Part shown: positions 8,266-51,514 of the stretch, in pieces
Numbering within the stretch: the first letter of the stretch is position 1
Layout: each line of letters starts with the position of its first letter
NCBI GenBank assembly: GCA_965215515.1
Contig: OZ244057.1
Span: 608,001-672,000 of the forward strand
DNA length: 64,000 nt
Direction: 5' to 3'
Source of the DNA: Oligoflexales bacterium
Lineage (GTDB): Bacteria > Bdellovibrionota_B > Oligoflexia > Oligoflexales > JAPPIL01
Notes under the pieces: generated by a model
The model's database searches: none
Seen by the model: the letters and a program-made list of their open reading frames with translations, nothing else
Told to the model about the DNA's origin: nothing
Program-made: the position numbers and the translations under genes

Positions 8266-8314
8266 GCTTCCACTCGCTTTGCTTGTGGAAGCTGTTTTGC
8301 CGCTTTCTAGCTCC
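8266..8314 (+). repeat. Short inserted element: hairpin GCTTCCAC/GTGGAAGC plus the GCTGTTTTGCCGCTTTCTAGCTCC motif
   Basis: Perfect 8-bp stem with a TCGCTTTGCTT loop; tail matches the unit of the 51349-51514 array; adds non-FtsK residues right after Walker A. Confidence 0.75.
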
Positions 8315-8375
8315 TATGCTTTCACTGCTGAAAAGCTCGCCACACATTCAACTGTATCTCTTGGACTTGAAGCGT

Positions 8376-8419
8376 GGAGCGAGCAAGCGGCAGACAAGCC
8401 CCATGAGCGTAGCGAATGG
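8376..8419 (-). repeat. Short inserted element, inverted copy: CCAT-TCGCTACGCTC-ATGG plus GGCTTGTCTGCCGCTTGCTCGCTCC
   Basis: Reverse complement has 2 mismatches over 25 nt to the array unit; causes the frameshift. Confidence 0.8.
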
Positions 8420-9028
8420 AGGTCAAGGAATTTGGAGCACTGCTCAACGTCAGGATAGCAGCAGATGAGACGGAGGCGACGAACATTCTGGAGTCTCTTG
8501 TTGCTGAGATGCACCGCCGCTATGAAATCTTGGAGCAAAGTGGACACAAGTCGATCGACCCTGCGAGGGACAAGCTAGATTTGATCGTGGTGGGTATAGA
8601 TGAAGCGGCAGCGTTGTTTGGCAAAGGAGCAAGCAAATCTGCTCGTGAGTGCATGGGCGAGCTAGCTCGTTTGGCTAGAGCGGCTGGAATTCACCTTATA
8701 CTCTCCACACAAAAGCCAGTGAAAGAAGCCATTAGCACAGAGATATTGGATAACTTATCGGGACGAATGACCTTCAGGATGGTTTCAACTGCGGCTTCAA
8801 ACGTGGCGATGGGCGGAAGCTACGCTCAGAAGTTACCCGCAATCAAAGGACGCGGCATGTGGAGCAATGGCAGCGAACAGAAGCAGGTGCAAGCACCTTA
8901 TGTTGATGACGAATTGATTGAAGTAGAACTGGAGGTGATTAATCAAGAGTTTGCAGATGGCATCAGGAAAAATTTCAATTCACTTTTGGAGGTAACGGAT
9001 GATGACAAAATATCAGAGACAGCTAACC

Positions 9029-9796
9029 ATGTTTGATACTGAAACGATCCCGACAAAGGTTGTCTTAAGTGAACGTGATCTCAAATTGATGTGTTCTTTG
9101 TTTGAGAACAAGATCGCTAGCAGAAATCAGATAAACGAGCAGTTTTTTCATGGTGTCTCTATCCACACCGTGAACAGACGGCTGCGCAAGCTCGTATGTC
9201 TTGGGTTGATAACGAGAGTTACAGCGATGGTGAGTAGCAGGGTAATTTGTGGCTACTGCTTGAGCCGAAAGGGTCTCACCAAAATTAAACCGATATTGCC
9301 GTATAAGGTAAAAACCAAGACAACCTTAAGTGAATGCCCGTTACATGACATCGCCTTGAACGACATCCGCCAAGCATTTGAGGCGAAGGACGCAGTGCAA
9401 CGCTACTACACCGAGAATGTTCTGCAAACATGCACGGGCTTCAAATCAGACAGGCAGTTTAGGCCCTTTGTGGAACTGAACAGTGACGCAATGGCTGAAG
9501 TAAATACAAGAATCGGGGTGCTGAACTTGGCCATTGAGTTTGATACGACGGTCAAAAGTAAAGATCGTTACCGCCAAAAGGTTAATGCTTACTATGGCAA
9601 GCGAGGGATTGACGGGGTGTTATACATCTGTGCAAGCAAGCACATTTTAAACATCTTGCTCAAGATAGATAAGGAGGTAGCAGATCGCCATCGTCGTAAA
9701 CCGAAAGTGTATTTAGCTATGTTGAGCGATGTCATTTGTGCGCTGGACGAAATGACATTTACGAATGCCATCGGGTACATCTTCCGTGTTCGCTAG
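9029..9796 (+). CDS. Replication-relaxation family (Replic_Relax-like) relaxase
   Basis: N-terminal wHTH (LSERD...RRLRKL...GLI), HD motif (PLHDI), (P/S)DA...AIEFDTT.KS..RY..K...Y nuclease-like motif; overlaps the FtsK stop. Confidence 0.75.
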   Translation: MFDTETIPTKVVLSERDLKLMCSLFENKIASRNQINEQFFHGVSIHTVNRRLRKLVCLGLITRVTAMVSSRVICGYCLSRKGLTKIKPILPYKVKTKTTLSECPLHDIALNDIRQAFEAKDAVQRYYTENVLQTCTGFKSDRQFRPFVELNSDAMAEVNTRIGVLNLAIEFDTTVKSKDRYRQKVNAYYGKRGIDGVLYICASKHILNILLKIDKEVADRHRRKPKVYLAMLSDVICALDEMTFTNAIGYIFRVR

Positions 9797-9965
9797 GAAC
9801 ATGCAGGGTGCTTTTACTATATGCCCCCTATATCGTCTAAGTTGGGGCAGGAGGTGTGATTTAATATGTTGAATTTACTTGATTTAATGAGATGAGGTGT
9901 CTAGCGGTCAATAATTCGGGGGTTATTTTTCAGAGATCATTTTTAACAACCTATTAGGAGGTTTC

Positions 9966-10412
9966 ATGAAACAGAAGGTGATGGTGATGTGCTTGGTGTT
10001 GAGTGCCGCGTTAGCGGCTGGATGTGCAACGTTGCACAGGTCTATGTCTGTGGGTGTGGGCATAGGCATAGGGACAGGAGTAGCGGCAAACATGGCAGCA
10101 ACGGGGGGCAAGGGTGCGATGAAGGGCGCACTCTTCGGCGCGGTGATCGGTGCTGCTAGCAGCTACCTGATTCACAGTGCTTTGGAGAAGAGAGATGCCA
10201 AGACGAGGAAGCAGACGCTACTTAACCTCGATAAGTTCTCTGTCTCCACACCAACAGGCAGGCGAGGCGTGCAGGACTTTCGGCTGTCCGCTCCTGACGT
10301 TGACAAAGAATGTTTCGATTGGGAGGTGCGAGGCAATCAGCTAGTGCAACAACATTGCGTGTGGACGATCAGGGGTAACGCCACATGGCAACTAAACACA
10401 AGGAGGCGATGA
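9966..10412 (+). CDS. Lipoprotein with glycine-zipper region
   Basis: AGGAGG SD; lipobox LAAGC; GVGIGIGTGVAA...GALFGAVIGA. Confidence 0.75.
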   Translation: MKQKVMVMCLVLSAALAAGCATLHRSMSVGVGIGIGTGVAANMAATGGKGAMKGALFGAVIGAASSYLIHSALEKRDAKTRKQTLLNLDKFSVSTPTGRRGVQDFRLSAPDVDKECFDWEVRGNQLVQQHCVWTIRGNATWQLNTRRR

Positions 10413-10727
10413 ATGAGTGCAAAACAGAAGGAAATGTGTAGGGTGCTGTTGGACAAGGAGCAGGCTAGCCTCGTTAGCGGGCTAGTCGCCAAGTTGCGAG
10501 GTGACTACTGCAAGGTAGACAGCTCGAAGCTGCTGAACCAGATCGTGGCGATCTTCTTTCAGAAGTACGCGGCGCAGGAGTATGACAGCATCGCCACAAC
10601 GTTCTTCGACAAACGCGGCTACCTGCGCAACCTCATCAACACCGCCCCGATCGAGGACATAGACAAGTCTATCAAGACTTACTTAGGCAAGGGGCGCACG
10701 GTGAAGGTGCGAAAGCAACAGCCTTGA
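10413..10727 (+). CDS. Hypothetical protein
   Basis: AGGAGG SD; directly follows the lipoprotein stop; 104 aa. Confidence 0.65.
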   Translation: MSAKQKEMCRVLLDKEQASLVSGLVAKLRGDYCKVDSSKLLNQIVAIFFQKYAAQEYDSIATTFFDKRGYLRNLINTAPIEDIDKSIKTYLGKGRTVKVRKQQP

Positions 10728-10767
10728 ATTCAAATGTGTTGCGCTGTAACATTGAAAGGAGCGTGCT

Positions 10768-11076
10768 ATAACAAATGAAAATTCGGGAAGGTTTTGTAAA
10801 AAATGCGGCAAATTTAAACTCTGGGATTGTTTCAGCAAGAAGCCTGGTGGTCGGAACGGGCGGGACAGTGCTTGTAAAGACTGCCGCAAGCGGGCACAGG
10901 TCAGCAGGAGAAAGAAATTGCGTGCTAACAAGCACATGGTGATTGATGGTGAGAATTTGGTAATTAAACACCGTATCGTTGGCGACCCATTGAAAGTAGA
11001 TATAGATGGCATCGCCATGATTATCGCTAACGCCTACCACAACAGGAGTGAGGACTTATGTATAAAAAGCGCATGA
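10768..11076 (+). CDS. CxxC-CxxC zinc-finger protein with an ATA start (non-canonical or mutated)
   Basis: 102-codon open frame after an AAAGGAG SD: TNENSGRFCKKCGKFKLWDCFSKKPGGRNGRDSACKDCRKR...; overlaps the recombinase start; missed by the ORF track. Confidence 0.65.
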   Translation: MTNENSGRFCKKCGKFKLWDCFSKKPGGRNGRDSACKDCRKRAQVSRRKKLRANKHMVIDGENLVIKHRIVGDPLKVDIDGIAMIIANAYHNRSEDLCIKSA

Positions 11077-12482
11077 ACCATAAGGAGATGAAGGCTCTGG
11101 TTTTGAAGGTCGTGGCGGATTGCCGCGGCCTTGCTGAACAGCATATCAAGAGCTGGCAGCCGTTCAATAAGGAGTGGCCAACGATTGAAGGAGCGGTTTA
11201 TTTGCGACTGTCTGATGATACACAAGTAGCCGTTGAGCGTGGATCGTTGGAGCAGCAAATTCACATCGCCATCTCTGAAGCACAGTATCGTTCGGAACAG
11301 GAGCGGATGAACTACAGGATTACCGAGTTCTACATTGAGCCAGGCATCACGGGCACGCATGGCAATCGCCCTCTGTTGCCGCTTTCTCGCTCCACATCAG
11401 GCTACAGCACAACATCAGCCTCAAAAAACATGGCAATAGCAATTACACCAGCGAACAAGAAGCGAGCTAGCAAGCGAGCGTTACAAAAAGGCGGCGTAGC
11501 GGTTCTTCAGGCTGTGCCAGAAATACGATTGCGAGATATGCATCAGAGGACTGCCGTTCAACCCTAACGATCCTGCTTCGATCCTACAACTTGATCAGCT
11601 AGCAGCTTTTGCTGAGTTCGAGTCTCGAACAACCTCAAAGCGTATCAGGGAAAGCAACCACTCTGCGTTGCTAACTTCAGGGAAATTCAACAGTCACTAT
11701 CCGCTGTTGGGGTTTGATGCGGTAAAAAACGAGCATGGTGAACATACTGGCATTTACAAGCCCAACAAGGCAGAACTGAAGCAGGTTGAGTGGATTATGT
11801 CATCGTTCCTGCGAGTGGACAGATACAAGACTCTACTTGATTGGTGTAGGGGGAAGAATATCAAGAGTAAGCGAGGTAGAGACTTTACATTAGTTAGCAT
11901 CAGGGGTCTGCTGACAAACCCTCGCTATATCGGCAAGTGGTATCGCAACAAGCACAACGCTGGCAAGAGACAGAGCAAGCTCATGCCCTATGAGCGTTAT
12001 ACTGAGGTTAAGTTGGATCATGGCTGCGTCATATTGACACGCGTTTGAGCTTCCTACTCGAAGGCGATAAAATGGAGATAGCACAGTCTTTCAGAGATGA
12101 GTATGAGAGACAGTTTTTAGACCTGAAAGACGAAGAGAGGGAGCTTATCGACAGGAAGAGGCAGCTTCAGTTACTGCAAAGACAGCTCGATGAAGCACAA
12201 GATGCTAGTAAGAGTGGGTGGTTAGATCATGCCAACAAGGCCATCAGCTGCATTAGGAAGAAGGATTTGATCTCGCTCAAATCTGCCTACAAGCAGCTCT
12301 TTCAGAAGATCATCGTTCACCCTCTGGATAGCACAAGATTGCAGTTGGAGTTTATCTTTAAGAGTGCGTCCACATCCATCCGCATGGGTGTGGACAAATT
12401 CTGTCCCTCGGTAGATTTGGTGGAGCATATCGGAATCGAACCGATGACCTCGGCAATGCCATTGCCGCGCTCTACCAACTGA
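11058..12482 (+). pseudogene. Large serine recombinase (integrase), fragmented
   Basis: YLRLS catalytic motif and EPGITGT..NRP; in other frames IRLQHNISLKKHG and DPASILQLDQLAAFAEFESRTTSKRIRE, recombinase domain LLTNPRYIG, and a C-terminal coiled coil; frameshifts near 11372-11499 and about 12032. Confidence 0.85.
12368..12395. repeat. Inverted repeat GTCCACATCCAT-CCGC-ATGGGTGTGGAC (tRNA terminator or att-site arm)
   Basis: 12-bp stem with one non-Watson-Crick position, about 22 nt beyond the tRNA CCA end. Confidence 0.5.
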
Positions 12483-12493
12483 GCTAATGCCCC
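12418..12493 (-). tRNA. tRNA-Ala (GGC)
   Basis: Reverse complement GGGGCATTAGCTCAGTTGGTAGAGCGCGGCAATGGCATTGCCGAGGTCATCGGTTCGATTCCGATATGCTCCACCA; 76 nt, G3:U70 pair, encoded CCA. Confidence 0.97.
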
Positions 12494-23224: not shown

Positions 23225-24418
23225 ATGCGTGGTTGTACGTGTAGCTTGTTGGCGGGGCTTGTCCTCGTGGCATGTGGTTTCGCGGAGAGGGCTGACAGGT
23301 CGCTCCTTATCATCGACCCTAGTGCGGGGGAGAAGCTTGCTGATGCCTTCGTCACCGAATGGCAGGTGCAGGCGGGCGAGGAGTTGGTGTTGCCGTTGCC
23401 CGAGGGTTTTGCCTACCGCTTCACGGTCGATTGGGGTGACGGCAGCGAGGGGCAGGTTAGTGCCTACAACGATCCCGCCGCCCGTCATGTCTACGCCGAA
23501 GAAGGCCGCTACGTGGTGGCCATCAGCGGTATGTTGGAGGCCTGGAGTTTTTGGCGTATTTCGGACAGCAGGGATAGTTTGTGGACGGTACGCAATCTCG
23601 GTGATGTCGGCTGGAAAAGCCTCTTCGGAGCTTTTGCCTCTTGCCCCAATTTGACCACCGTCGTCGGTGGTCACGTCGCCGCGGTGACCGACATGGGATC
23701 GATGTTCGACAGTGCCGTGCAAGCGTTACCCGATGGGCGGGATTGGGACACCGCACAGGTCATCGACATGAGCTACATGTTTGCAGGGGCGAGTTCGGCA
23801 CAGCCACTGGTAGGAGAGTGGGACACGGCCGCAGTGCAGGACATGAGTCGCATGTTTGCGAAGACTAGGGAGGTTGACCCCGACGTGAGCAGTTGGGTTA
23901 CCTCGGATGTCATGCGCATGGCTGGGATGTTCTACGAGGCGGCGGCGGCACAACCCGCGACGGGGACTTGGAATACCGTCAGTGTAACCGACATGAGCGA
24001 CATGTTCCACAATGCCCCGCGCGCCAACCCCGATGTCAGCTGTTGGAACACGACGAACGTCACCGACATGAGCAACATGTTCTACGGGGCAGTCAAGGCC
24101 AACCCCGATGTCAGCTGTTGGGATGTGGCACAGGTCATCAGCATGCAGAACATGTTTCACACTGCGGTGTCCGCCATCCCCGACATGTCGAGGTGGGAAA
24201 TCCCCGCGGTGACGACGATGGAAGGCATGTTCCACGGGGTCAGTTTGCCGAGCCAAAACTGGAGCGACCTGCTTATCCGCGCCGCACATACTTCCGCACA
24301 GCAAGGGGTAGTGCTGGATGGAGGTGACTCACGTTGGCATGCCGCGGCCGCGGCGGAACGCGCCGAACTGCTGACACGCGGCTGGCACATCAGCGATCTC
24401 GGTCAGGACACGGGCTGA
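23225..24418 (+). CDS. Surface lipoprotein, PKD-like domain plus DUF285/BspA-type 25-aa repeats
   Basis: Lipobox LVAC; VDWGDG...HVY...G.Y.V.I.G; repeats W(D/N)T..VTDMS.MF..A..ANPDVS. Confidence 0.85.
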   Translation: MRGCTCSLLAGLVLVACGFAERADRSLLIIDPSAGEKLADAFVTEWQVQAGEELVLPLPEGFAYRFTVDWGDGSEGQVSAYNDPAARHVYAEEGRYVVAISGMLEAWSFWRISDSRDSLWTVRNLGDVGWKSLFGAFASCPNLTTVVGGHVAAVTDMGSMFDSAVQALPDGRDWDTAQVIDMSYMFAGASSAQPLVGEWDTAAVQDMSRMFAKTREVDPDVSSWVTSDVMRMAGMFYEAAAAQPATGTWNTVSVTDMSDMFHNAPRANPDVSCWNTTNVTDMSNMFYGAVKANPDVSCWDVAQVISMQNMFHTAVSAIPDMSRWEIPAVTTMEGMFHGVSLPSQNWSDLLIRAAHTSAQQGVVLDGGDSRWHAAAAAERAELLTRGWHISDLGQDTG

Positions 24419-24508
24419 GCGCATCGCGCTTGTCAACGTACGTGATCTGCCTTAACATAGTTAGCAGGGCTACTGGTACTAATACTAAATAAAGTATAGG
24501 GATTCGTT

Positions 24509-25897
24509 ATGCGCATGCTGGTTTTTCTTCTCTCGTTTTTGTTTTTGGTTTTTGGCAGTGCCTGTGGTTTCGACGGCAATGGCAAGCGGGGGGCAGCTCT
24601 TCCTGATGATGGAGATAACGGCGAGGAACAGCTTTCCGATGCCTTCGTTTCCAAATGGCGGGTAAGTGCCGAGGGCGGCATTGTGAATCTCCCTCTGCTG
24701 GGTGGTTTCAACTACGATTTTACCGTCGATTGGGGTGATGGTCAGGTGACCGAGCACGACGGCGCGATGGTTTCTCATGCCTACGAAGAGGCAGGCATCT
24801 ATACAGTGAAAATTACAGGGTTGCTAGAAGCGTGGAGCTTCGCAGCAGAGCCGCGCAGCCGTGACATGTTGTTGAGTGTCGAGGATCTCGGTGATCTCGG
24901 TTGGCGTAGTCTGCAAGGTGCTTTTGCGGGGAGCGAGGAACTTACCGCGGTTAGCGGTGGCAATATGTCCAACGTTTACAGTATGCATGCGATGTTTGAA
25001 GGTGCTGCCGCGGTTATGCCCGATACAGGCGGTTGGGATACGCACCAGGTACGAACCATGACGGCGATGTTCATGGGGGCGATGGCGGCTGACCCCGATG
25101 TGGGTGGCTGGAACACGGAACAGGTAGCCAGCATGCACTCTATGTTTCGTGGGGCGAGGGCCGCCAACCCCGATGTCAGCAATTGGGATACGGGTGCGGT
25201 TACCAACATGAGCTACATGTTCATGAACGCGTTTTCTGCCATGCCTGAGGTCAGCAACTGGAATACCGCCAAAGTGACCGACATGAGCAATATGTTTCGA
25301 GGGGCGATTGCGGCTGACCCCGATGTCAGCAATTGGGACGTGTCCGCGGTGGCAGACATGAGTTACATGTTTGCGGAGGCGGTGTCCGCCAATCCGCCTG
25401 TCAGCAAGTGGCTTACAGGTGCGGTAACCAACATGCGGGGGATGTTTACACGGGCGACGAGTGCGAACCCTGTGGTCAACGGCTGGGATACGAGTGCGGT
25501 GACCGACATGTCGGGGATGTTTCTCGATGCCATTTCCGCCAACCCTAGCCTCGACTGCTGGGATGTCGGCAAAGTAAGCGATATGCGTCACATGTTCAGC
25601 GGTGCGGCCAAGGCCGATGTCAACCTGTCGAAGTGGGATTTCGGTGCGGTGATCTTCATGCACAACTTGTTTCACGGTGTGACCCTATCTACTGACAACT
25701 ACGACGGTCTGTTGACGAGAGTGAATGAGACCTCGTCCCGTACCAACCTCATCCTCGACGCGGGCAACTCCCAGTACAGTGCCGACGGGGCTGTGGCGCA
25801 TCACAGCCTAACCGATAGGGGCTGGCATATCCGCGATGCTGGTATCGCTCCCGACGCGAGCAGCGAAGAAGGAGACGCTGAAGAAGGCGGCGAGTAA
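24509..25897 (+). CDS. Surface lipoprotein, PKD-like domain plus DUF285/BspA-type repeats
   Basis: Lipobox GSAC; VDWGDG; about ten 25-aa repeats; acidic tail. Confidence 0.85.
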   Translation: MRMLVFLLSFLFLVFGSACGFDGNGKRGAALPDDGDNGEEQLSDAFVSKWRVSAEGGIVNLPLLGGFNYDFTVDWGDGQVTEHDGAMVSHAYEEAGIYTVKITGLLEAWSFAAEPRSRDMLLSVEDLGDLGWRSLQGAFAGSEELTAVSGGNMSNVYSMHAMFEGAAAVMPDTGGWDTHQVRTMTAMFMGAMAADPDVGGWNTEQVASMHSMFRGARAANPDVSNWDTGAVTNMSYMFMNAFSAMPEVSNWNTAKVTDMSNMFRGAIAADPDVSNWDVSAVADMSYMFAEAVSANPPVSKWLTGAVTNMRGMFTRATSANPVVNGWDTSAVTDMSGMFLDAISANPSLDCWDVGKVSDMRHMFSGAAKADVNLSKWDFGAVIFMHNLFHGVTLSTDNYDGLLTRVNETSSRTNLILDAGNSQYSADGAVAHHSLTDRGWHIRDAGIAPDASSEEGDAEEGGE

Positions 25898-25907
25898 TCC
25901 GATGAGT

Positions 25908-25932
25908 CCACCCCCTGAACGCGGGGTGGTTT
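25908..25932 (+). terminator. Hairpin CCACCCC/GGGGTGG followed by TTT
   Basis: 7-bp GC stem about 10 nt after the stop; T-tract is short. Confidence 0.4.
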
Positions 25933-25959
25933 AGGCTTGTGCTTGACTGGGAGTTACCG

Positions 25960-26883
25960 ATGAGAAACTTGCTGTTAGGGATGTTATTTTTTGTGACTGC
26001 TGGCACGCTGTGCGCGGCGGCTGACTTTGTTTCCGTCTGGAGGGTGGCGGAGGATGACTTACAGGTGGTGCTACCTGTACCACAAGGATTTGATTACGAT
26101 TTTCAAGTAGATTGGGGTGACGGCGCCAGTGGGCAGGTGACCGCTTGGGATGACGAGGATGCGGCGCATACCTATGCACAGGCAGGTACTTACACGGTTA
26201 CGCTGCGCGGGCGGGTGGAAGCGTGGAGTTTTTGGAAAATACCCCACAGCAAGGATAAGATCATCGCGGTCAACAATCTCGGCAGTGTCGGTTGGCGGAG
26301 TTTTTTCGGAGCCTTTCTAGCCTGTGAGAACCTCAAGGAAGTTGCGGGGGGCGATACGGCACAGGTGACAGACATGCGCTACATGTTTTATCTCGCACCC
26401 CTGGCTGTACCTGACACGACTGGCTGGGACACGAGTGCAGTCACGAACATGGCGGGCATGTTTTGGTTTGCGAAGGCGGCGAACCCCGAGGTCAGCAACT
26501 GGAACACGGCCGCGGTGACGGATATGAGTTTCATGTTTGCCAGCGCACGCGCGGCGAACCCCGAGGTCAGCAACTGGAACACGGCACAGGTGCGAAGCAT
26601 GCGGAGTATGTTTTACCGTGCCGTCGCGGCAACTCCGAACATGGGTACTTGGAATTTTGCGCAGATCGGAGATATGCATCGCATGTTTTGGGGAGTGACA
26701 TTACCGACGGCTATCTACAGCAACATGCTGGTGCAGTTGGCCTCCACCGCGGGGTCGCACAACGTAATTTTGCACGGTGGTTACTCCAAATACAACGCGG
26801 CGGGTGCAACGGCCCGCCAGGAGTTGACCACCAGGGCATGGGTGTTGATCGATGGCGGGCGCGCCCTTGACCCCTCCTCTTGA
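25960..26883 (+). CDS. Secreted PKD-like plus DUF285/BspA-type repeat protein
   Basis: Signal peptide; VDWGDG; about five repeats; same C-cap (LHGGYSKY...W.LIDGG). Confidence 0.85.
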   Translation: MRNLLLGMLFFVTAGTLCAAADFVSVWRVAEDDLQVVLPVPQGFDYDFQVDWGDGASGQVTAWDDEDAAHTYAQAGTYTVTLRGRVEAWSFWKIPHSKDKIIAVNNLGSVGWRSFFGAFLACENLKEVAGGDTAQVTDMRYMFYLAPLAVPDTTGWDTSAVTNMAGMFWFAKAANPEVSNWNTAAVTDMSFMFASARAANPEVSNWNTAQVRSMRSMFYRAVAATPNMGTWNFAQIGDMHRMFWGVTLPTAIYSNMLVQLASTAGSHNVILHGGYSKYNAAGATARQELTTRAWVLIDGGRALDPSS

Positions 26884-26900
26884 TCTCGGTACACGTGGCG

Positions 26901-29900
26901 ATGAACACGAACAGGAAGCTCGTGCTGGGTGTCGCTGCCACGTTCCTCTTTTTTGTCGGCTGTGCGTGGCAGCCGAACGCACGGATACGGACTAGTGCCA
27001 CCGATGCTGCCCTTGTTATCGAGTTTCTCGTGCGCAATTCTGACCCGACCATTCGCTTGCCGTTACCGAAGGGTTTCACTTATGATTTTGTGGTAGATTG
27101 GAATGACGGCACTGAATCTTACATCGATTCTCACGACGATCCCGATACCCTGCATAGATATGAGAGGGTAAAGTCCTACCGTGTCAGCATTACTGGTCAG
27201 GTAGGTTCTTGGAGTTTTTGGAAAGTTCCTCACAGCAAAGATCGCATCGTTGCGGTGGAAGATTTGGGTGATGTCGGCTGGCATAGTCTGGCGGGGGCGT
27301 TTTACGATTGTAATTTGCTGGAGAGCACCGCGGGAGGGGACACCTCGGCTGTCACCGACATGAGCTACATGTATCACCGCTCGCCTTTGGTCGTGCCAGA
27401 TACCAGTGCCTTCGATACCAGCAGTGTCACCACGATGCGGGCGATGTTCGATAGGGCTGCCAGTGCCGATCCCGATGTGCGTGTTTGGGACACGAGCAAG
27501 GTCAGAGACATGTCGGGGATGTTTGCCAAGACAAGCGAAGCTCGTCCTCAAACAGACAGGTGGGACACTTCGAAGGTGGTGTTGATGTCGGACATGTTTC
27601 GTGCCGCGCTGGTTGCCAACCCTACGGTCACGCGCTGGAACACGAGCGACGTGAAAGACATGTCGTCGATGTTTGCGGGGGCGGTGGTTGCCGATCCTCA
27701 CGTAAACGACTGGGATACGGGATCGGTTGTTTCCATGTACGGGATGTTCAAGAATGCCACCTCCGCGCGTCCTGACATGTCACGCTGGGATTTCGCTGAG
27801 GTCAAGTTCATGGATGACATGTTCGCGGGTGTGGTGTTGCCGACCTCTACGTACAGCCAGATGCTGACACGAGCTGCACTTACCGCTCGTCAGCAGGAAG
27901 TGGTATTGCACGCGGGGGAAAAGACCCGCTACCACCCTGAGGTTGTGGATTCTCGCGAACTTCTCGTCGAAACCATGCGGTGGGAAATCACCGACGGTGG
28001 CCTGGACACCTCTGCGCAAGAATTTTCCACCCGTTGGGAGGTACGCGGTAGCGATCTGACCGTTAAGCTCCCGCTGGTGTGTGCCGATGGCCGCGGCGGG
28101 CAGTACGATTACAACTTCAAAGTTAACTGGGGTGATGGAGTTGAGTCACAGGTGGTCAGGTGTGATGACAACCTCCGTACGCATACCTACTCGCAGGAGG
28201 GGGTGTACACGGTTACCATCACGGGGTTGTTGGAAGCGTGGAGTTTCAAGGAAGAACCGCACAGCCGTGCTAAACTCACCGATGTCTGGAATCTGGGGTC
28301 GGTGGGCTGGAAAAGTTTACGCGGTGCGTTTGCAGGGTGTAGCAATCTGAACACGGTGGCGGGGGGAGACACTGCGTTGGTAACGGACATGAGCTATATG
28401 TTCCACGACTCTCCCCAGGTCGATGTCGAGGTCGGCGAGTGGGACACCCGTAGGGTCACCGACATGGGGCACATGTTTAAGGATGCGACGGTGGCGCGTC
28501 CTGAGGTCAGTAACTGGGATGTGTCTTCCGTGCTCAACATGACGCAGATGTTCAAAAACGCGACGCGTGCCGAGCCTGACATGTCGGGGTGGAATTTTGC
28601 TCAAGTCGGAAACATGGATGAGATGTTTGTCGGAGTCAAGTTACCTACTACTAACTACGACAAGATGTTGTTATGTCTTTGTGCAACGTCGCAGCGCAAG
28701 GACACGGAGATCAATCTGCACGGGGGGCAGTCGAAGTATAGTTTGCGTGCCTACAGCGCACACGATTTACCATGCAGTGCTGATTCTATGTGTGTCGATG
28801 CTGACGGGAGTGCCATCACTACGGCTGAGGCGGCGCGAGATCAACTCGACAAGAACGAAAATGGCAATTGGGTTATCGACGACGGGGGGCTGGAGCGCAT
28901 TCCTGCACCGTTTGTGACGCGTTGGTATCTGCCGCGCGGCGGTCAGATCACACTGCCCTTGCTGCGGCGGGCAGGATTGTCTTACGCTCTAGAGGTGGAG
29001 TGGTGTGACGGCACGAGAGAAAGCATCAGCGGCGATGAATGGGATGTGGCTGCTGCCACCCACACCTGCCCTCCTCCCGCGTCGAGCGATCTGGAAGACC
29101 TGCCGACGGTCATCATCAGCGGGGATATCGGTACGGGGCGTTGGAGTTGTCGTGATTTTGCGGTTGAAAACAGATGCGACAAGCTCTATGCCGTCGATGA
29201 TCTCGGTGATCTCGGCTGGAAGAATCTCAGCGGGGCGTTTGCTTTTGCCGAGTCGCTGGTGGTTTTTGCAGGGGGGAACACCTCGCAAGTTACCGATATG
29301 AGTTTTATGTTTTTTAGATCCGAGAGGGTACGACCTGAGGTCTCGAATTTCGACGTGAGCAAGGTTGAAAACATGTGGGGGATGTTTCAGGGTGCGTTGT
29401 CCGCTGACCCTGATGTCAGTATGTGGAATACGTCTAGAGTGAAGGATATGGGTTGGATGTTTGCCCAGACTAGGCTGGCCAACCCTGATGTCAGTGATTG
29501 GCGCACGTCCCTTGTGACTAGCACTCAGCGTATGTTTTCTCAGGCGGAGCTGGCTGATCCTGATCTCAGCAATTGGGACATGCAGCAGGTTACAGACATC
29601 AGTTATATGTTTTACCAGGCGCGTCAGGCGACCCCTGATGTTGCGCAGTGGAACACTGCACGGGTGGAGGATATGGCGGGGGTTTTTCGCCGTGCCGACA
29701 AGGCTGATCCCGATGTCGGCAGCTGGGACACATCACGAGTGACGAATATGCACCATATGTTTGCCGATACCAGAAGCGCGACACCAGATGTTAGTCGTTG
29801 GGATGTCGGTCGTGTTACTAATATGCGTGGCATGTTTAGAAATGCGGTCAGTGCTAGACCAGATGTCAGTGACTGGAATGTTGCTAGTGTTGAGGATATG

Positions 29901-30370: not shown

Positions 30371-31024
30371 TCAGGGGGAGAACACGATCTCCAGCCTGTC
30401 ATCGTGAATGATGTCCTCGAGGTGAATAAACACCGCACCGCTCGCGACCGCCGTGCCAGAGCCAGTGCTGATCAACAAGCCTGTCACCTCCACCTCAAGA
30501 TAGCCATCGCTGTAAAAAGCGATAACCGTGTTCGGGTAACCAGCGCGCAGCATCGCGGCGGGGTTATCTGGTAAGGGCGAGGAGTGCATTGCCGCGTCGT
30601 CGCGGTATTTAATCCTCGCACCGATGTATCTGCTCGCTTCTTTCCTGAGGCCACTGACCTGTTCGAGAGGAATAGTTGCCCTGTCATCGAAGTCCACCCG
30701 TGCATCACCCTTGTCCCCCATGCCTGAGGCAGACTCGACGGTAAGTTCGATTTGCCGCGCCCTCTTAGCGTCGGCGGACGGAGGCAGTACTGTGACATCC
30801 ACCACCTTCCCGCTCCAACTATGCTCGTCCCGCACATAGTGCACATACTTGCCCCGCAGCTGGTCGGCGAGCACACGCTTGACCCAACGCTCCGACGCAC
30901 CTTGTTCGCCCACAAGAGTGAACAGCAGGCCTGTGCCAGCCACACCCCCTCCGCCATGCCGTAGCAACGGCGCACGCGCCGCCAACAGCGACAAGGCCAC
31001 CAGCACCGACCACCTCAACCACAT
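30371..31024 (-). CDS. Hypothetical secreted protein
   Basis: GGGAGAG SD, signal peptide, 217 aa. Confidence 0.6.
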   Translation of the reverse strand: MWLRWSVLVALSLLAARAPLLRHGGGGVAGTGLLFTLVGEQGASERWVKRVLADQLRGKYVHYVRDEHSWSGKVVDVTVLPPSADAKRARQIELTVESASGMGDKGDARVDFDDRATIPLEQVSGLRKEASRYIGARIKYRDDAAMHSSPLPDNPAAMLRAGYPNTVIAFYSDGYLEVEVTGLLISTGSGTAVASGAVFIHLEDIIHDDRLEIVFSP

Positions 31025-31163
31025 AGCTCTCTCCCAGATGTACGACGACGGACAACACCCTTACAACTGCGAGGGAAAGGATGTCAAGACTCCAAGAGAG
31101 CCAGTCAGGCCGTGTTGCTGCTCGCTGAGAACGCGAACAGCAACACGCACACAACCTGTTTAA

Positions 31164-32099
31164 TCACTGATCACTGCTGGAGTCTGTACAAATGCCCTGA
31201 TAGATGTGTTCATTCCCTTCGAAACTGCGGCGGGCAAATACACTCTGCCCGTCACGGCAGGGGGTGCCATCCGCATTAAAATATACTAGGAACACATTAT
31301 CGTTATCGTCCTTATTCTCACCCCGACCTGTTGGCGTATTCTGAGAGAGTACCCTGCCCTCGTCATCGACAGTGATAAAGTCAACTTCGCCTTCCTGCCA
31401 GCCAGACGTTGGCGTAGCTAAGGTAAACCTATACCTGGTAAAACTAGTGCCAGCATCGTCGCTACCACCTGGCTCAGCGGACAATATCAGATCGTCATCG
31501 GGTGCGGCAGTAACAGTAACCTCGACATCATCGACACGGGTATCGCCCATGTAATAGACCAACTTGCTGATGCCCTTGTCCGCGGCACCGTCGGTGAAGA
31601 ACAAGCCATCGATACCCCGAAAGCTGTCTCTCGCCTCGGTAACATGGATGTTGCCGCGGCTCCAGCGAGCCAAGGCGTGCTCCACTAACTCACCTTCAGC
31701 GTTGTACACCTCTACCCGTAGCGGCTGATCTTGCAACTCACGCTCTACCTCGTCATACTCGAGCGTGAGTTCCGAGTTAGATAAGCCCTGCGGAGTGACA
31801 GCTACGGAGAAGAAAGTCCTCTCCGCCAGCGTACCTGAGCTGCCATACCTCTCGCCGCGCGGAGCAAACTGGCCCTGATAGGAATAACGCAACCCCGTCA
31901 CCTTCTCTCCGAGATGACAAGAGATGGATCTGAGATCCAGAATGTTAACCACCCCATCTTGATTGACATCGGCACGCCCGAGCGGAATACCCCCACAAGA
32001 CACCTCCGCGTCCGCCGCCGCCGTGGAAGACGTTTCCTCCTCGGTGGTACACGACAACGACAATAGCAAACCGCTAAAAAACAACAGATACCTCATCAC
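31164..32099 (-). CDS. Lipoprotein with dockerin-like Ca-binding motif
   Basis: GGAGGT SD; lipobox LSLSC; ADVNQDGVVNILDL. Confidence 0.7.
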   Translation of the reverse strand: MMRYLLFFSGLLLSLSCTTEEETSSTAAADAEVSCGGIPLGRADVNQDGVVNILDLRSISCHLGEKVTGLRYSYQGQFAPRGERYGSSGTLAERTFFSVAVTPQGLSNSELTLEYDEVERELQDQPLRVEVYNAEGELVEHALARWSRGNIHVTEARDSFRGIDGLFFTDGAADKGISKLVYYMGDTRVDDVEVTVTAAPDDDLILSAEPGGSDDAGTSFTRYRFTLATPTSGWQEGEVDFITVDDEGRVLSQNTPTGRGENKDDNDNVFLVYFNADGTPCRDGQSVFARRSFEGNEHIYQGICTDSSSDQ

Positions 32100-32311
32100 C
32101 TCTACCTCCCCTAAAAAAAATGACCAAATCTGTACTGCTGTTCGGACAATTTTTGATTATACTAAGCCGTTGCTGGGATAAAATTTGCTATCCTGCGGGA
32201 TCTGCCGTGCAGATGCCCCCAAATCTCGTGTTATCATCACTATCATCTTGGAGCACAATCCAGTTGTGCGCGGGAGGCTCGTGGCAGAAGGCCGCGTCTC
32301 TTCGCTTAATC

Positions 32312-32707
32312 CTACTCACCTGCAGTGCGGATGGTGAAGGTGGTGATACCTCCTGCACGCAGTTTGTCGATCAGGGCAATCACCTTGCCGTGTGGGGTAT
32401 GTCGATCGGCAGCAACGGTGACCGCTTTGCCGCTGGCGGCGGTGCGGGCGATGGTTTCGGCTAGCTGGGAAACGGCGATCTGCTCGGCGTTGAAGTAGAC
32501 TTGGGCAGTGGCGGTGAGGCTGAAAGTGACGGTATCGACATCGCTGGTGGCGGTGGTCGCCTGTGGCAAGCGGATTTTGATCCCACGGTCGTCGATATAG
32601 CTGGTGGTAACCATAAAAATTACCAACAGCACCAGCATCACGTCTACCAGCGGGGTGATGTTGATCCCAGTAATCTCGTCCTCGTGAAAATTTTCCAGAG
32701 CAGCCAT
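32312..32707 (-). CDS. exbD: ExbD/TolR biopolymer transport protein
   Basis: INITPLVDVMLVLLVIFMVT, LPQA, AD...PHG.V....D....G. Confidence 0.88.
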   Translation of the reverse strand: MAALENFHEDEITGINITPLVDVMLVLLVIFMVTTSYIDDRGIKIRLPQATTATSDVDTVTFSLTATAQVYFNAEQIAVSQLAETIARTAASGKAVTVAADRHTPHGKVIALIDKLRAGGITTFTIRTAGE

Positions 32708-32790
32708 TACCTCCCACCTCATCTTTATGTTCGCCATTGGCACTAACCACGGGTATAATCGGCAGCCGTTGCTGCCTGGATGAGTTTTTT

Positions 32791-34452
32791 ATGTCCGTTG
32801 CTTTCGATGAATTCAAGGCTTTTGCCAAGAAAAATAAATTTTTTTATATCTTAGGCACCTGTGGCCTACTTCTGATTAACTTTAGCGAAGTTGCCACTCC
32901 TAAAATCATCCAGTGGCTGATCGACCTCTTGGTAAGACAGGATAACAGTATCATCCCAGAGTTGTTACGCGGGGCATCGGTCACCGCGTCACTCTATTTC
33001 CTATCTTTCCTGCTGTTGTGCAACTTCAGCGCGGGGGCGATCGGAGCCGTCGTCTGGCGGGAAGGGTTGGGGCGCATGACGCACCTGGCTGGTAAGGAAA
33101 CCCGCCTCAGGTTTTGGCACAGGCTGAAGGAAGTGCGTTACGATCGCTTTTTACAGCGGTTTACGGTTGGCGATCTGATCAATCGCATCTCGCAGGACTA
33201 CAACGTCACCCGCTTCATGCACGGCTTTAACATCGTAGAGACACTAGACATCTTGTTTTTTACGTCTTTGGGCTTGGTACTGATGTTTCTCATCGATGCT
33301 GAGCTGACTATTTATTGCTTGCTGTGTTTTGCGATCACGCCACCTCTTATCGCCCGTCTCGCACACCGCGAATATCGGCAGCATCTGCACGCACAAGAGG
33401 AGTTGTCACGACTGTCGGATTTGGTGGCACAAGCGACCGCGACTATCAAACTACAGCGATCGAGTGGGAGCGAATTCTTTTGGCAAGACAAGCTCGGTCT
33501 GTCGGCGAAAGAATATGCCCAGCGCAGTTATCGGGTGCAGAAGACAGAATGGCATATTTTCGCGTGCGGAGCACTGCCTGTTATTTGTTCTTATGCCCTA
33601 CTGTGTGGGCTGGGGATACAAAAAATTGTGACAGACAAATTGTCACTCGGTGAATTTTTTGCTTTGGCCTCGTATATTTCGATGCTGCAATCGCGACTCT
33701 ACATGTTGAGTAGCTGTATTTCGACCTGGCAACGTGGCTTGGCAAGCTACGGGCGGATACTAGAAATTATCAAAGCCAAGCTGACCAGACAGAAAAAACA
33801 AAACACGACAGACTTTAGCCAACCATTGTTGGAGATAAAATCTTTGTCTTTTGCTTATGGCAAGCATCAGGCCGTGAGTTTTTTTAATCTGCGGTTAATG
33901 GAGCGTGAATGGCTGGGAATCGCGGGGGCGTTAGGCACAGGCAAGACTACAATTTTGCGCTGTGTACTGGGTTTATTGCCCGTAGTGGACAAAAAGATTT
34001 TTCTATTCGGTGCAGACATCAACGGTGTGCCTGATAAAATGCGTAGCAAGTTAATTTCTTATGTTCCGCAGAAAGTTTTTTTGTTTTCAACCACAATCCG
34101 TGAGAATCTTTGCCTCGATCGTTATGAAGATGAAAAAAAACTTTGGCAAGTGCTTAAGATTGTGCAGTTACACGAGTTTGTTGCTAGTTTGCCCCAGCAG
34201 CTTGACACCAAAATCGGTGAATGGGGGGTGGATCTTTCCGGAGGGCAGAAACAACGTTTAGCAATTGGGCGGGCGATTTTATGCAACCCGAAGTTGCTGC
34301 TGTTCGATGATTGTTTCAGTGCTATCGACAGTATCACCGAGCACATGATTATGCGGCGGGTACGGGTTTTTCTCGCCCATACTGCGATTATCTGGGCATC
34401 GCATCGTGCATCTTCGTTACGCTTATGCACTAAAATTATTACTTTGTATTGA
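32791..34452 (+). CDS. ABC exporter, fused TMD-NBD (MdlA-like)
   Basis: TM domain, GALGTGKT, YVPQ, LSGGQKQR, LLFDDCFSAID. Confidence 0.88.
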   Translation: MSVAFDEFKAFAKKNKFFYILGTCGLLLINFSEVATPKIIQWLIDLLVRQDNSIIPELLRGASVTASLYFLSFLLLCNFSAGAIGAVVWREGLGRMTHLAGKETRLRFWHRLKEVRYDRFLQRFTVGDLINRISQDYNVTRFMHGFNIVETLDILFFTSLGLVLMFLIDAELTIYCLLCFAITPPLIARLAHREYRQHLHAQEELSRLSDLVAQATATIKLQRSSGSEFFWQDKLGLSAKEYAQRSYRVQKTEWHIFACGALPVICSYALLCGLGIQKIVTDKLSLGEFFALASYISMLQSRLYMLSSCISTWQRGLASYGRILEIIKAKLTRQKKQNTTDFSQPLLEIKSLSFAYGKHQAVSFFNLRLMEREWLGIAGALGTGKTTILRCVLGLLPVVDKKIFLFGADINGVPDKMRSKLISYVPQKVFLFSTTIRENLCLDRYEDEKKLWQVLKIVQLHEFVASLPQQLDTKIGEWGVDLSGGQKQRLAIGRAILCNPKLLLFDDCFSAIDSITEHMIMRRVRVFLAHTAIIWASHRASSLRLCTKIITLY

Positions 34453-48693: not shown

Positions 48694-48769
48694 CACCCAC
48701 CTCCAGAAACCAGACACCGCCAGAACGTAGCACAGTGGGAAACAATCGGCAAGTTGGTGCTGACCCTAG

Positions 48770-51331
48770 CTAGGACAGCACGATCTCGGGAGCAGGCGGA
48801 CGCAAATTGTAGTGCGAAGCCATCACCGCCCCGTACGCACCCGCGTGTGCGATCAACAGCACATCCCCCTCCTGGCAAGCGGGCAAGCGACGAGCATGTC
48901 CGAAGTTATCTGCTGACTCACAGATCGGCCCTACTACCTCCACCGTTTCTTGTGCATCGTCTGCCGCGAGACGGGTAAGGTTGAAAATTTCGTGATAGGC
49001 ATCGTAAAGCGCGGGACGCAGTAACGAATTCATCCCTGTGTTGACACCGACGAAGTTTATCTGCGCCTTGTGCTTCAACTGTGTAACCTGTGCCAGCAAT
49101 ACCCCCGCGGCGGCGGTAAGATAACGCCCTGGTTCGATCCACAACTCATACCTCGCCGCGACATCTTGCAGGGAAGCATCGACCGCAGCAAAATCAAGCT
49201 CACGCTCCTGCGGGTGTTCTGGCACACCAAAACCGCCGCCGAGATTGAGGACTGTTACCTGTGCGAATTCCTCCGCCAGCTCTGCCAGCAACCGTGCCCG
49301 TCCTTGCCATTCGTAAGGCGCGAGGATTCCGCTGCCCGAATGAGCGTGCAGACCTCTGACGATAATACCATGCTGTCGCACCGCGGACGACATGCGTTCC
49401 CTGTCATGCGGGGCGATGCCGAACTTAGCCCCCACCCCACCTGTCATCACGTGCCGATGATGCCCCTTACTAAAACCAGGGTCAATTCGTAGCATTATCT
49501 CCCGCCCCGCAAACAGTTCTCCCCACCGTTCCAGCACGTAGAGGTTGTCGATCGTCACCATACAACCCCGCGCCAGCGCAAACTCGTACTCGTGCCGTGC
49601 GCAAAAATTAGGCGTGAACAACACCCTGTCCATCTTCAACCGCGGCAAAACCCGCACGATATGCTGTATTTCCTGCTGCGACACACATTCAAAATCGATC
49701 TGTTGCTCTGCCAAAAACTTCAGCAGCGCGGCGTGATGATTGGCTTTCACCGCGTAGAAGATCCGCTGGGCACAGTTCAGCGTGCGCAGTTTCTGCACCG
49801 CGGCATCCACCGCAGTCAGAGAATAAACATACAGCGCCGTATCGTGTTGCACCGCCAACTCCAGCAACTCGCCGCGCTGCCGCTGCCACCACGCGGGAGG
49901 GCGCGGCGGGAAAGCATCCGCACTGGTTTCTTGTAGTTGCAACCAACTGTCACCGAACACTTCCCCTGTCGTCTCCCCCCCAAACAACAGCTGATGTATC
50001 TTGTGCAGCAGACGCTCGCTCTGTTCTTGTGCGACGACGAAGGTTAAATTGAGATCGTTGGCCGACTGTGCGACGAGGTGCACCGTCTGCCGTTCGAAGA
50101 GAGCGAATAGGGGGCCGAGTGCGGGCAACATACTGCGGATATTTCTCCCGATCACGCTGAGGGTAGCGCAGTGCGCAATTTCGGTAACGGTGCAGAATTT
50201 TCGTAACGCCGCGAGCAGGGCAACCAGTTCTGGCTCACGTTCGGCGGTAATTTTGTCCAGCGAGACACTGACACTCGCCTCCGAAGTAGCGATAAGATCG
50301 ACCGAAAAGCGATGCTGCTTGAAACAGGTGAAAATGTCCGCCAGAAACCCCGCCTGCCGCCACATCTTCAAACTTGCCAGGTGCAGCAGCAGCACGTTGC
50401 TTTTTACCGTCACCGCCTTCACCCTACAGGTATCGGTGGTGGGGCGACTCACGACCCGAGTCCCTTGCACCTCAGGATTAGGCAACGAGCGCAGTTGCAA
50501 CTCAACTCCCGTCGCAACGAGCGGTGCGATCGCACGCGGGTGCAACACTTTTGCCCCCATCAACGCAATTTCCTGTGCTTCGGGGCCGCTGAGGGTCTTG
50601 ATTAACCTCGCCTGCGGAATACGACGCGGGTCGGTGGAGTAAAAACCTGGCACGTCGCTCCAAATTTCACAGCGCGTCGCCCCCAATCCTCCCGCCAACA
50701 GAGTGGCGGAAGTGTCAGACCCTCCGCGTCCCAGCAACACCGTCTCGCCTGCACGGTTGCGGGCGATAAAACCTTGCGTGATACACAGCGCGGCATGTGC
50801 AAGTTGTGCGCGTGCATCAGGTCGCGGGCTGAAACAACAATCGCTGTCGAGATAACTGTCGTCGCTGGCTAACAGCAGATCGGGGGCGTGTAACCAGACA
50901 ACCGCCAGTCCCTGCTGCCGTAAAAAACGGTGACCTAACCGCGACGCGATGATTTCTCCGCACGACATCGCCCGTGCCCACAAGGGCGGCGCAACGCGCT
51001 GGTGCGTGCCATGCAGCGACGCTAGCAGGGTGCGCAGGTGTTGCAGCTCCGCTTCGATGTCGGCGAGCTGTGTCACCCCTAGGTCTGTGGCCAAGTTGCG
51101 ATGTTGTGTACACAGACGCTCAAAACGTGTGTGTGGAAACTCCTGCCGCGCCGCACGCAGCAACCGCTCGATCGTGTTCGACACCTGCGACAAAGCCGAT
51201 ACCACCAGCACGATACGGTCAGCAGCGGCACGATGGCGCTGCACGACGGTGAGGATGCGCCGCCAGGAAGCCGCGTCGGCTACCGACGTACCGCCAAACT
51301 TCAACACCAAAGTCATGCGTGCTACTGACAT
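48770..51331 (-). CDS. lysAC: Bifunctional aspartate kinase / diaminopimelate decarboxylase (LysC-LysA fusion)
   Basis: KFGGTSV, LGRGGSDTSA, ACT domains; then FYAVKAN, KFGI, HAHSGSG, EPGRY, VGPICES, GAYG..MAS.YN. Confidence 0.93.
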   Translation of the reverse strand: MSVARMTLVLKFGGTSVADAASWRRILTVVQRHRAAADRIVLVVSALSQVSNTIERLLRAARQEFPHTRFERLCTQHRNLATDLGVTQLADIEAELQHLRTLLASLHGTHQRVAPPLWARAMSCGEIIASRLGHRFLRQQGLAVVWLHAPDLLLASDDSYLDSDCCFSPRPDARAQLAHAALCITQGFIARNRAGETVLLGRGGSDTSATLLAGGLGATRCEIWSDVPGFYSTDPRRIPQARLIKTLSGPEAQEIALMGAKVLHPRAIAPLVATGVELQLRSLPNPEVQGTRVVSRPTTDTCRVKAVTVKSNVLLLHLASLKMWRQAGFLADIFTCFKQHRFSVDLIATSEASVSVSLDKITAEREPELVALLAALRKFCTVTEIAHCATLSVIGRNIRSMLPALGPLFALFERQTVHLVAQSANDLNLTFVVAQEQSERLLHKIHQLLFGGETTGEVFGDSWLQLQETSADAFPPRPPAWWQRQRGELLELAVQHDTALYVYSLTAVDAAVQKLRTLNCAQRIFYAVKANHHAALLKFLAEQQIDFECVSQQEIQHIVRVLPRLKMDRVLFTPNFCARHEYEFALARGCMVTIDNLYVLERWGELFAGREIMLRIDPGFSKGHHRHVMTGGVGAKFGIAPHDRERMSSAVRQHGIIVRGLHAHSGSGILAPYEWQGRARLLAELAEEFAQVTVLNLGGGFGVPEHPQERELDFAAVDASLQDVAARYELWIEPGRYLTAAAGVLLAQVTQLKHKAQINFVGVNTGMNSLLRPALYDAYHEIFNLTRLAADDAQETVEVVGPICESADNFGHARRLPACQEGDVLLIAHAGAYGAVMASHYNLRPPAPEIVLS

Positions 51332-51348
51332 ACCCTGCGCGTCGCCCC

Positions 51349-51514
51349 GCTTGTTCGCTTGCTAGCTCCGCTAGGCTTGTTTGCCGCTTGCTAGCTCCGC
51401 TAGGCTTGTTTGCCGCTTGCTAGCTCCGCTAGGCTTGTTTGCCGCTTGCTAGCTCCGCTAGGCTTGTTTGCCGCTTGCTAGCTCCGCTAGGCTTGTTTGC
51501 CGCTTGCTAGCTCC
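51349..51514. repeat. Perfect tandem array of the 29-bp unit GCTAGCTCCGCTAGGCTTGTTTGCCGCTT
   Basis: Five identical full copies (51361-51505) plus partial copies on both sides; no spacers. Confidence 0.95.

Follow-up and report, generated by a model that had tools for sequence, protein, structure and literature searches.

Why should one motif of about 24 nt lie exactly where the genes of a decaying integrative and conjugative element (ICE) are broken and, well away from these breaks, also make up a perfect tandem array? The question is posed by a 64,000-nt stretch of an Oligoflexales genome (G000:C1:608001-672000, hereafter the window; G000 is one contig of 2.18 Mb with 52.6% GC), for which the original prediction saw a fixed short template being written into DNA at breaks. 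To our minds, the motif is probably the core, conserved over 22-25 nt, of a family of tiny interspersed repeats that is confined to one genus and that seeds, expands and is selected; the repeats are non-palindromic and strand-asymmetric, one strand being rich in purines and the other in pyrimidines. By itself the core measures 17-25 nt; it also occurs joined to a linker or a hairpin module, in single units of ~37-47 nt, and in composites with an inverted second module, and composite blocks are common to unrelated genes. Copies appear to have entered new sites without target duplication, sometimes at the cost of a few to ~54 native bases, and a seeded site then seems to grow into a homogeneous tandem array, each locus having a unit of its own. 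We envisage three steps. A repeat would seed new sites without duplicating its target; arrays would next grow in place, presumably by replication slippage or unequal exchange, and be homogenised there, while blocks may be swapped among seeded sites by ectopic gene conversion; selection, finally, would sort the copies, with in-frame, purine-sense ones surviving in essential genes as hydrophilic linkers and out-of-frame or antisense ones lasting mainly in dispensable DNA. The ICE junctions of the window would then be unfiltered cases in decaying DNA and its distant array an intergenic expansion.

All copies reported for the window proved to be real when looked for by mismatch search, 12-mer search and Tandem Repeats Finder (TRF). 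With up to 3 mismatches, the 24-mer GCTTGTTTGCCGCTTGCTAGCTCC matches seven times, at 8291-8314 (+), at 8376-8399 (-) and, in five perfect copies, within 51375-51514, with 0 matches over 100 dinucleotide shuffles as the chance expectation. The 12-mer TTGCCGCTTKCT has 8 matches (0.02 expected) and is exact at 11376-11387 and at 54777-54788. The latter match bears out the partial copy claimed there, a decayed single copy (54772-54790, +; exact for the 12-mer TTGCCGCTTTCT) between the genes for a class II aminoacyl-tRNA synthetase and a peptidase M3. The pieces at 11451-11476, previously thought to be permuted, do represent family sequence but form part of unit B, a second module found again at genome positions 1528590, 2091748 and 2099027. 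As for the distant array (51349-51514, +), it belongs to the same sequence family as the ICE copies, is intergenic and consists of one degenerate unit followed by 5.5 perfect 29-nt units (TRF: 51356-51514, 5.5 copies, period 29 nt, 100% matches). It is not a CRISPR, from which it differs in having its entire 29-nt period constant and no unique spacers, and no Rfam family matches it, the sole Rfam match in the window being a tRNA-Ala. A perfect array, the placement of copies at junctions and the fact that no public contig spans the array might suggest an artefact of assembly or contamination, be it adapter or primer sequence or a chimeric join. We give this next to no credence: short-read contigs from public runs (n=4, one study) reach into the array from either flank with 0 mismatches, contigs of the array unit stand at 3.3-6 times the flank depth, copies have diverged between paralogues and species, and in-frame inserts sit in long open reading frames (ORFs) with domains on both sides.

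Genome-wide, the 24-mer (up to 3 mismatches) has 58 matches in G000 and a 16-nt core, when up to 2 mismatches are allowed, has 97. The latter fall at 31 loci, of which 22 are outside ICE copies. Exact copies of an 18-mer number 45, 291 and 223 in G000, G001 and G002, respectively, the three complete or nearly complete genomes of the motif-bearing genus. None occurs in 38 further genomes from its family and order, and a reversed-pattern control gave 0. Among 185,579 species genomes the 24-mer is present in just one other record, an Oligoflexales metagenome-assembled genome, and it is absent from JGI metagenome contigs and from IMG/VR contigs. When the repeat peptide was searched against 1.84 billion protein representatives, 9 matches at E<=0.001 were obtained and, among the five examined, one is the same repeat peptide, presumably from this lineage, and four are unrelated repeat proteins; tblastn of the peptide against G001 and G002 gave 5 weak matches only. 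A position profile built on 155 distinct copies, drawn from all three species, has a block of ~22-25 nt conserved above 0.9, with a sharp 3' edge after GCTCC and a 5' side that fades gradually. Although the intergenic DNA of the three species is no longer alignable, the core is near-unchanged. In G001 and G002 it is one module within long intergenic mosaic repeat clusters and, in G001, it also occurs at 18-nt spacing. G000 has 12 TRF arrays of the family with periods of 27, 29, 39 and 41 nt (range over loci 27-41 nt), each 98-100% uniform internally and differing from locus to locus in period and private substitutions; the same unit is in tandem at many loci, mostly intergenic between co-oriented operon genes.

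The family also resides inside host genes. The host ORFs, real genes by Pfam with domains on either side of the insert, are dapD, a gene fusing a VTT domain to a pyridine-nucleotide-disulphide oxidoreductase (hereafter the flavoprotein gene), a nuoC-nuoD fusion, comEC, a giant DnaJ-domain protein, bioD-bioA and lptF/G. While nuoCD is natively fused in G001, G002 and a further comparison genome (G003), G000 alone carries an additional 231-237 nt at the C-D linker; its dapD is longer by 390-396 nt (ten 39-nt units), its comEC by about 252-255 nt and its lptF/G by 18 nt. All four inserts are in frame and their sites are empty in G001 and G002, as they are in G003 for nuoCD, dapD and comEC (lptF/G has no match there). 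G002, in turn, has a clean in-frame 108-nt insert in a gene whose G000 counterpart is empty. At the flavoprotein site G003 has no insert, G002 a single 42-nt unit and G001 a degenerate insert; in G000 the site is occupied by a composite of inverted unit B, a spacer and four 39-nt units. The B-plus-spacer block in nuoCD resembles that in the flavoprotein gene, and each of these arrays has its own two substitutions in every unit. No target duplication was seen at the nuoCD, dapD, comEC, lptF/G, flavoprotein or G002 junctions. The repeat would in this way reshape proteins, with up to ~127 extra residues in DapD and 79 in NuoCD. A second match gap of ~69 nt in the G001 oxidoreductase orthologue (G001:C1:1042107-1042177, at query residue 566) may be another insert.

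What distinguishes the arrays kept in genes is their reading. The 39-nt units within genes, arrayed in frame in dapD, nuoCD, comEC and the flavoprotein gene, are stop-free in all six frames, and no array of stop-bearing units (the 29-nt unit of the window, which read in tandem gives TAG in all frames, and the 27-nt and 41-nt units) lies inside an intact gene. The purine-rich strand has 1-2 T per unit and its three frames give the hydrophilic peptides GARKRQTGLAERS, AERESGKQAWRSE and SEKAANKPGEAEW. Since this strand is so poor in T and the 39-nt units of the gene arrays are stop-free, in-frame purine-sense copies may be tolerated in essential genes. Consistent with this, the purine strand is the sense strand in 9/9 genic cases of G000 and in 7/9 within the first 400 kb of G002 (binomial p 0.0013) and, by hand count, at 20 of 22 non-ICE loci of G000, with one opposite and one ambiguous (p 0.0002 on a stricter 19/21), where orientations were read by hand from crude gene maps based on the longest ORFs. 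Among the ICE copies orientation is mixed. Replication strand as the cause of the bias was rejected, as both orientations occur in each skew-defined replichore and track gene strand. The cumulative GC skew of G000 peaks near 640 kb (window ~32000) and has its minimum near 2.13 Mb, which suggests that the replication terminus lies inside the window (~30000-34000), with very unequal replichores of 0.69 and 1.49 Mb.

The same bias, which extends to intergenic operon arrays and 5' leaders, together with a core that is near-invariant in three species and a unit with GGAG-type motifs, could be taken to mean that the core is a functional host signal, such as a site for protein binding or an element that acts at the RNA level when operons are transcribed, which is selected and spread passively by recombination. 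We consider this quite unlikely. Copies lie at unrelated coding positions, in pseudogenes and in an array of tRNA-Gly pseudo-copies, their number varies 6-fold among the species, sites filled in one species are empty in the next, and Rfam has no match. The bias itself is explicable by selection against hydrophobic or stop-containing translations and, possibly, against C-rich, G-poor transcripts. The tRNA-Gly(tcc) pseudo-copies are themselves a tandem array (G000:C1:2012515-2012851; 3.5 copies of a 95-nt TRF period), with tRNA-Thr on one side, the genuine tRNA-Gly on the other and the family core apparently inside each tRNA body.

The ICE spans window 1-12493, is bounded by a tRNA-Ala(ggc) (12421-12493, -) and encodes a TrbC/VirB2-type pilin, a TraC/VirB4-type ATPase, TrbI, an FtsK-like coupling ATPase, a Replic_Relax protein and a large serine recombinase. 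G000 has at least 4 further ICE copies or fragments of ~63-92% nucleotide identity, two of them with intact coupling ATPase (459, 460 aa) and recombinase (597, 602 aa). Alignment to these intact paralogues upholds the claim that all four ICE copies of the motif sit at interruptions of conserved coding sequence, and further that native residues were lost at some of the junctions (5 nt at the first insert below, ~54 nt in the recombinase). In the FtsK/SpoIIIE-type coupling-ATPase gene, a pseudogene in the window copy (7578-9036, +), insert 1 (8266-8314, +) is a ~47-nt unit in place of the 5 native nt. It adds net 42 nt in frame, that is 14 aa straight after Walker A (by protein alignment with the two intact paralogues), and has the pyrimidine-rich motif strand as the sense strand of the gene. 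Insert 2 (8379-8415, -), a 37-nt addition whose purine-rich strand is sense, resembles the 41-nt unit of an array at genome position 1759058 and causes a frameshift that divides the gene into ORFs 7578-8468 and 8416-9036. The two inserts, 61-64 nt apart, are mutually inverted, so the assertion that there are no inverted repeats is valid only within the unit. Both are present, albeit diverged, in the ICE copy at 6 kb, and in diverged form they are common to ICE paralogues that are ~82% identical.

The recombinase gene (11058-12482, +), which ends against the tRNA-Ala, is in three frame pieces with ~380 nt deleted near 12033. It carries a truncated core of 17 nt (11378-11394, +; GCCGCTTTCTCGCTCC plus A) that shifts the frame after the codons for GNRP and, beyond ~57 nt of native sequence, a unit B ('module C'; 11435-11499, -; ~65 nt, with its purine-rich reading on the + strand) that replaces ~54 native nt, or 18 codons, which read FVIFKEIARLVRDLEIWK in the intact paralogues. 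The 17-nt insert also occurs in the paralogues at 586 kb and 1758 kb, the latter with a fuller unit; both recombinase changes are shared with two other paralogues, and the unit B module is abundant in the sister genome G001. In a 4-way alignment of the ICE (~13 kb), four window insertions of at least 12 nt are missing from both intact paralogues and three of these (42, 37 and 17 nt) are family sequence. Elsewhere, a small ORF of the ICE copy at 1632 kb contains a 42-nt unit of its own, in frame, and a 25-nt core insert is present in a further ICE copy. Paralogue alignment gave no target-site duplication at any ICE junction examined and, as also stated previously, there is no transposase near the window junctions. 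Since antisense and out-of-frame copies would be kept in dispensable DNA, they may come to mark the breaks of the decaying ICE in the window. For annotation this means that the split ICE genes are pseudogenes from repeat insertion, not sequencing errors, and that the repeat may help to erode conjugative elements. At an ICE attachment junction, seven 41-nt family units (G000:C1:1759048-1759344) separate a tRNA-Val from the 3' end of an ICE recombinase fragment.

Genome-wide, 9 of the 31 loci fall in ICE DNA, which makes up ~3% of G000 by a rough sum of BLAST matches (p ~2e-7, or 1.6e-4 with paralogous copies counted once). The motif is not specific to ICEs. The enrichment belongs to what may be said for one fixed template that a reverse transcriptase, primase or HUH enzyme writes at DNA breaks, disabling mobile elements as it does so. 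Junctions with bases lost and no target duplicated, head-to-tail concatemers, truncated copies (17, 18 and 25 nt) that all retain the same core end and a profile with the polarity expected of primed synthesis would fit such a process too. We nevertheless hold it to be very unlikely. No reverse transcriptase (RVT_1) was detected in the 4 genomes, for which control genomes do score, and no Ku for end joining either; Y1_Tnp (PF01797) was found in 1 of the 3 motif-bearing genomes, G000, where its locus is free of family sequence. Hence, neither writing of a fixed template at breaks nor disabling of elements is supported, and the template locus expected beside a reverse transcriptase or RAYT/TnpA(Y1) gene did not turn up in these searches. 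Array periods and substitutions private to each locus are unlike the output of a single template, the ICE inserts are old, as their sharing by paralogues of ~82% identity indicates, and of the 22 loci outside ICEs many lie within or next to housekeeping genes. The arrays that essential genes carry in frame likewise speak against a process directed at mobile elements, as does G001, which has one relaxase match with its 291 copies.

A further alternative is a non-autonomous element, such as a miniature inverted-repeat transposable element (MITE), a REPIN or an IS200/IS605-like 'PATE', that depends for its movement in trans on an unrecognised transposase with the core or the hairpin module as its recognition site. 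Insert 1 contains an 8-bp hairpin (GCTTCCAC...GTGGAAGC; -9.4 kcal/mol, z -3.85), and the stem of the hairpin module changes in pairs between copies (TTCCAC/GTGGAA against CTCCAT/ATGGAG). A net 42 nt recurs in three independent single insertions (FtsK insert 1, the one in the small ORF at 1632 kb and that in the flavoprotein gene of G002), inverted doublets occur, the core is kept from species to species, the enriched ICE DNA goes through a single-stranded stage, and G002 has the core in the long inverted ends of a ~450-bp element and also has 20-bp hairpin doublets. Against this, target duplications are missing at the junctions, the unit has no terminal inverted repeats and is not palindromic, and insert length varies (17-47 nt). 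Folding no stronger than that of shuffled sequence was obtained for the core itself (z about 0) and for the array unit and insert 2 (z +0.14 to +1.1), good folding being confined to the accessory module of insert 1; G001 and G002 are without Y1 transposase, and the 8 empty sites, judged by eye, share no target consensus. On balance, mobilisation in trans appears possible yet somewhat doubtful to us. The suggestion of a very small REP/MITE-like element was the closest on offer as far as a very small mobile repeat goes, whereas the palindrome and RAYT gene of REPs and the terminal inverted repeats and duplication of MITEs are not found with it.

How, then, might a repeat that seeds, expands and is selected reach a new site? 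A RAYT/Y1 transposase was rejected as the driver, as it is confined to G000 and adjoins no repeat, and so was the ICE relaxase, which has homologues in 14/41 relatives against 3/41 for the motif and a single match in G001, the genome richest in repeats. Similarity or microhomology between target and unit, convincing when judged by eye, was rejected as well: in 16 comparisons at 8 empty sites, scores against unit trimers were 6-10, with a mean of 7.61 (sd 1.84) for 3000 random 40-mers from coding sequence, and the lowest fraction of this background to reach a site's score was 0.108. With empty sites no closer to the unit than random coding 40-mers, extended target homology is unsupported. DNA uptake sequences of Neisseria and Pasteurellaceae gave 0 matches. 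Because the core is near-unchanged across three species with unalignable intergenic DNA, our first guess, offered tentatively and at rather less than even chance, is a sequence-specific factor encoded elsewhere in the genus that inserts without target duplication. Our second guess, which we hold with less confidence, is an enzyme-independent copy-in by template switching during replication or repair; that inserts vary in length and that native bases went missing speaks for copy-in or for a process akin to repair.

Several points weigh against seeding, expansion and selection as a complete account. The searches above brought out no enzyme or mechanism of insertion, and mobility is inferred from presence and absence between genomes. 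The ICE enrichment may plausibly reflect relaxed selection, as we read it, but a preference for single-stranded or transferred DNA would also fit. Each of the two ICE genes has 57-64 native nt enclosed by one antisense and one sense unit, an arrangement unlikely by chance on which our model is silent, and the recurrent net 42 nt is similarly left unaccounted for. That the core is so strongly conserved from one species to the next might just as well point to a host function, the orientation counts depend on the hand-read ORF maps described above, and the public runs offer short contigs only. Some of these features would be accommodated by a sequence-specific micro-insertion system, in which a ~24-nt element is copied without target duplication by an unrecognised genus-specific enzyme acting on single-stranded or transcribed DNA; this would account for the ICE enrichment, the anchored 3' end with its variable 5' extent and the inverted pairs ~60 nt apart. 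We deem such a system unlikely. If it existed, however, the element would rank among the smallest mobile DNAs known, with seeds growing into arrays that write new disordered segments into essential proteins.

Returning to the window array, it is flanked by two minus-strand genes, whose sense strand is the purine-rich strand of the array, and lies upstream of an aspartokinase-type/DAP-decarboxylase-type fusion gene (48770-51331). The genes flanking it are far apart in the sister genomes (1.42 and 2.31 Mb in G001, 0.81 and 1.53 Mb in G002), which places the array at a synteny breakpoint. In G001, too, repeat sequence lies upstream of the counterpart of the 853-aa gene beside the array. Tandem repetition of another kind is seen in the window at 23225-30182, where four genes with DUF285 repeats (up to 1100 aa) follow one another, the 75/150-nt tandem repeat at 25141-25435 being their coding repeat.

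Other repeats of G000 deserve mention. At G000:C1:1241562-1242001 a gene 5' end together with a family unit is tandemly duplicated fourfold (TRF period 110 nt); next to a family unit, at G000:C1:1242035-1242090, is a third small repeat with two hairpins (CCAACTTTTTTCAAAAAGTTGG then GGGGTATGGGGCAGCACCCC), which also forms a specific insert in the ICE copy near 9 kb. A second repeat has the conserved end ...GTGTCCGCTTTTTACGGGGGCATCTACA (for example at G000:C1:3917, 28777, 821553 and 1166720), and its 12-mer GGGGGCATCTAC is the commonest in G000 with 53 copies. At least about a dozen copies share ~70 nt upstream, so that it looks like the terminus of an insertion sequence or MITE, and fragments of it lie at deletion junctions of the serine-recombinase genes in two other ICE copies. 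A CRISPR-like repeat is among the most frequent words of G000 as well (12-mers such as GTGGATTGAAAC and CCGCATGGGGAG, 33-34 copies each).

How very short, non-duplicating repeats enter new sites is a decades-old question, raised by Rickettsia palindromic elements (RPE), mycobacterial interspersed repetitive units (MIRU) and small dispersed repeats (SDR) alike, and with three genomes that hold 45, 223 and 291 copies and many sites filled here and empty there, the rules of insertion might be readable by comparison. We found no publication on the present family in literature searches that were not aimed at Oligoflexales specifically. From RT-templated systems (retron/DRT-like or telomerase-like) the family differs by the lack of RVT_1 in the 4 genomes studied here, and from MITEs by a unit without inverted ends or target duplication, albeit the larger G002 element does have long inverted ends. 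REP/BIME and REPIN-RAYT sequences are extragenic palindromes tied to a RAYT gene (PMC3116915). They, too, are short, abundant and clustered into mosaics with inverted doublets, but the Oligoflexales core forms no hairpin, many of its copies lie within genes and Y1 transposase is absent from G001 and G002.

Closer parallels exist. The SDRs of heterocystous cyanobacteria are ~20-27 nt long and occur dispersed, in tandem in variable number and within larger mosaics (PMC2884548). By this description, a conserved block of ~22-25 nt, periods of 27-41 nt and the mosaic clusters of G001 and G002 are SDR-like, as are small size, dispersed, tandem and nested copies, suspected mobility and no known enzyme. 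The differences are another phylum, a core that is non-palindromic and strongly strand-asymmetric and long in-frame arrays in essential genes. Nesting rules and paired insertion in hairpins were reportedly described for SDRs by Elhai et al. in 2008. In-frame insertion into conserved genes that looks selfish, as in dapD, nuoCD, comEC, the flavoprotein gene and lptF/G, has its counterpart in RPEs (Ogata et al. 2000), which are in frame and translated within unrelated metabolic genes, leave the proteins able to function and have no known transposase (PMC10969869). RPEs, however, are palindromic single copies of ~150 bp (100-150), whereas the Oligoflexales units are non-palindromic, measure 17-47 nt and build arrays of up to ~127 aa. 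With MIRU-VNTR (variable number tandem repeat) loci, where one family forms many variable arrays that are mostly between operon genes and cotranscribed, some being in coding regions (PMC3635867), ours shares one unit arrayed at many loci, mostly intergenic in operons. Sequence and host are different, and copy-number variation among strains is a MIRU feature. MIRU units are also longer, about 50-100 bp.

The arrays as such resemble the tandem repeats of Borgs most, in being perfect and recent, intergenic as well as in ORFs, flanked by partial repeats, enriched in purine (A) on the coding strand and translated in frame into disordered segments. Local sequence, however, is the stated source of Borg repeats, which 'arise independently' locus by locus (Schoelmerich et al. 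2023; PMC9879509), whereas every Oligoflexales locus has one shared core, which calls for a dispersal step before expansion. Seen in this light, the family combines traits of SDRs, MIRUs, RPEs and Borg tandem repeats.

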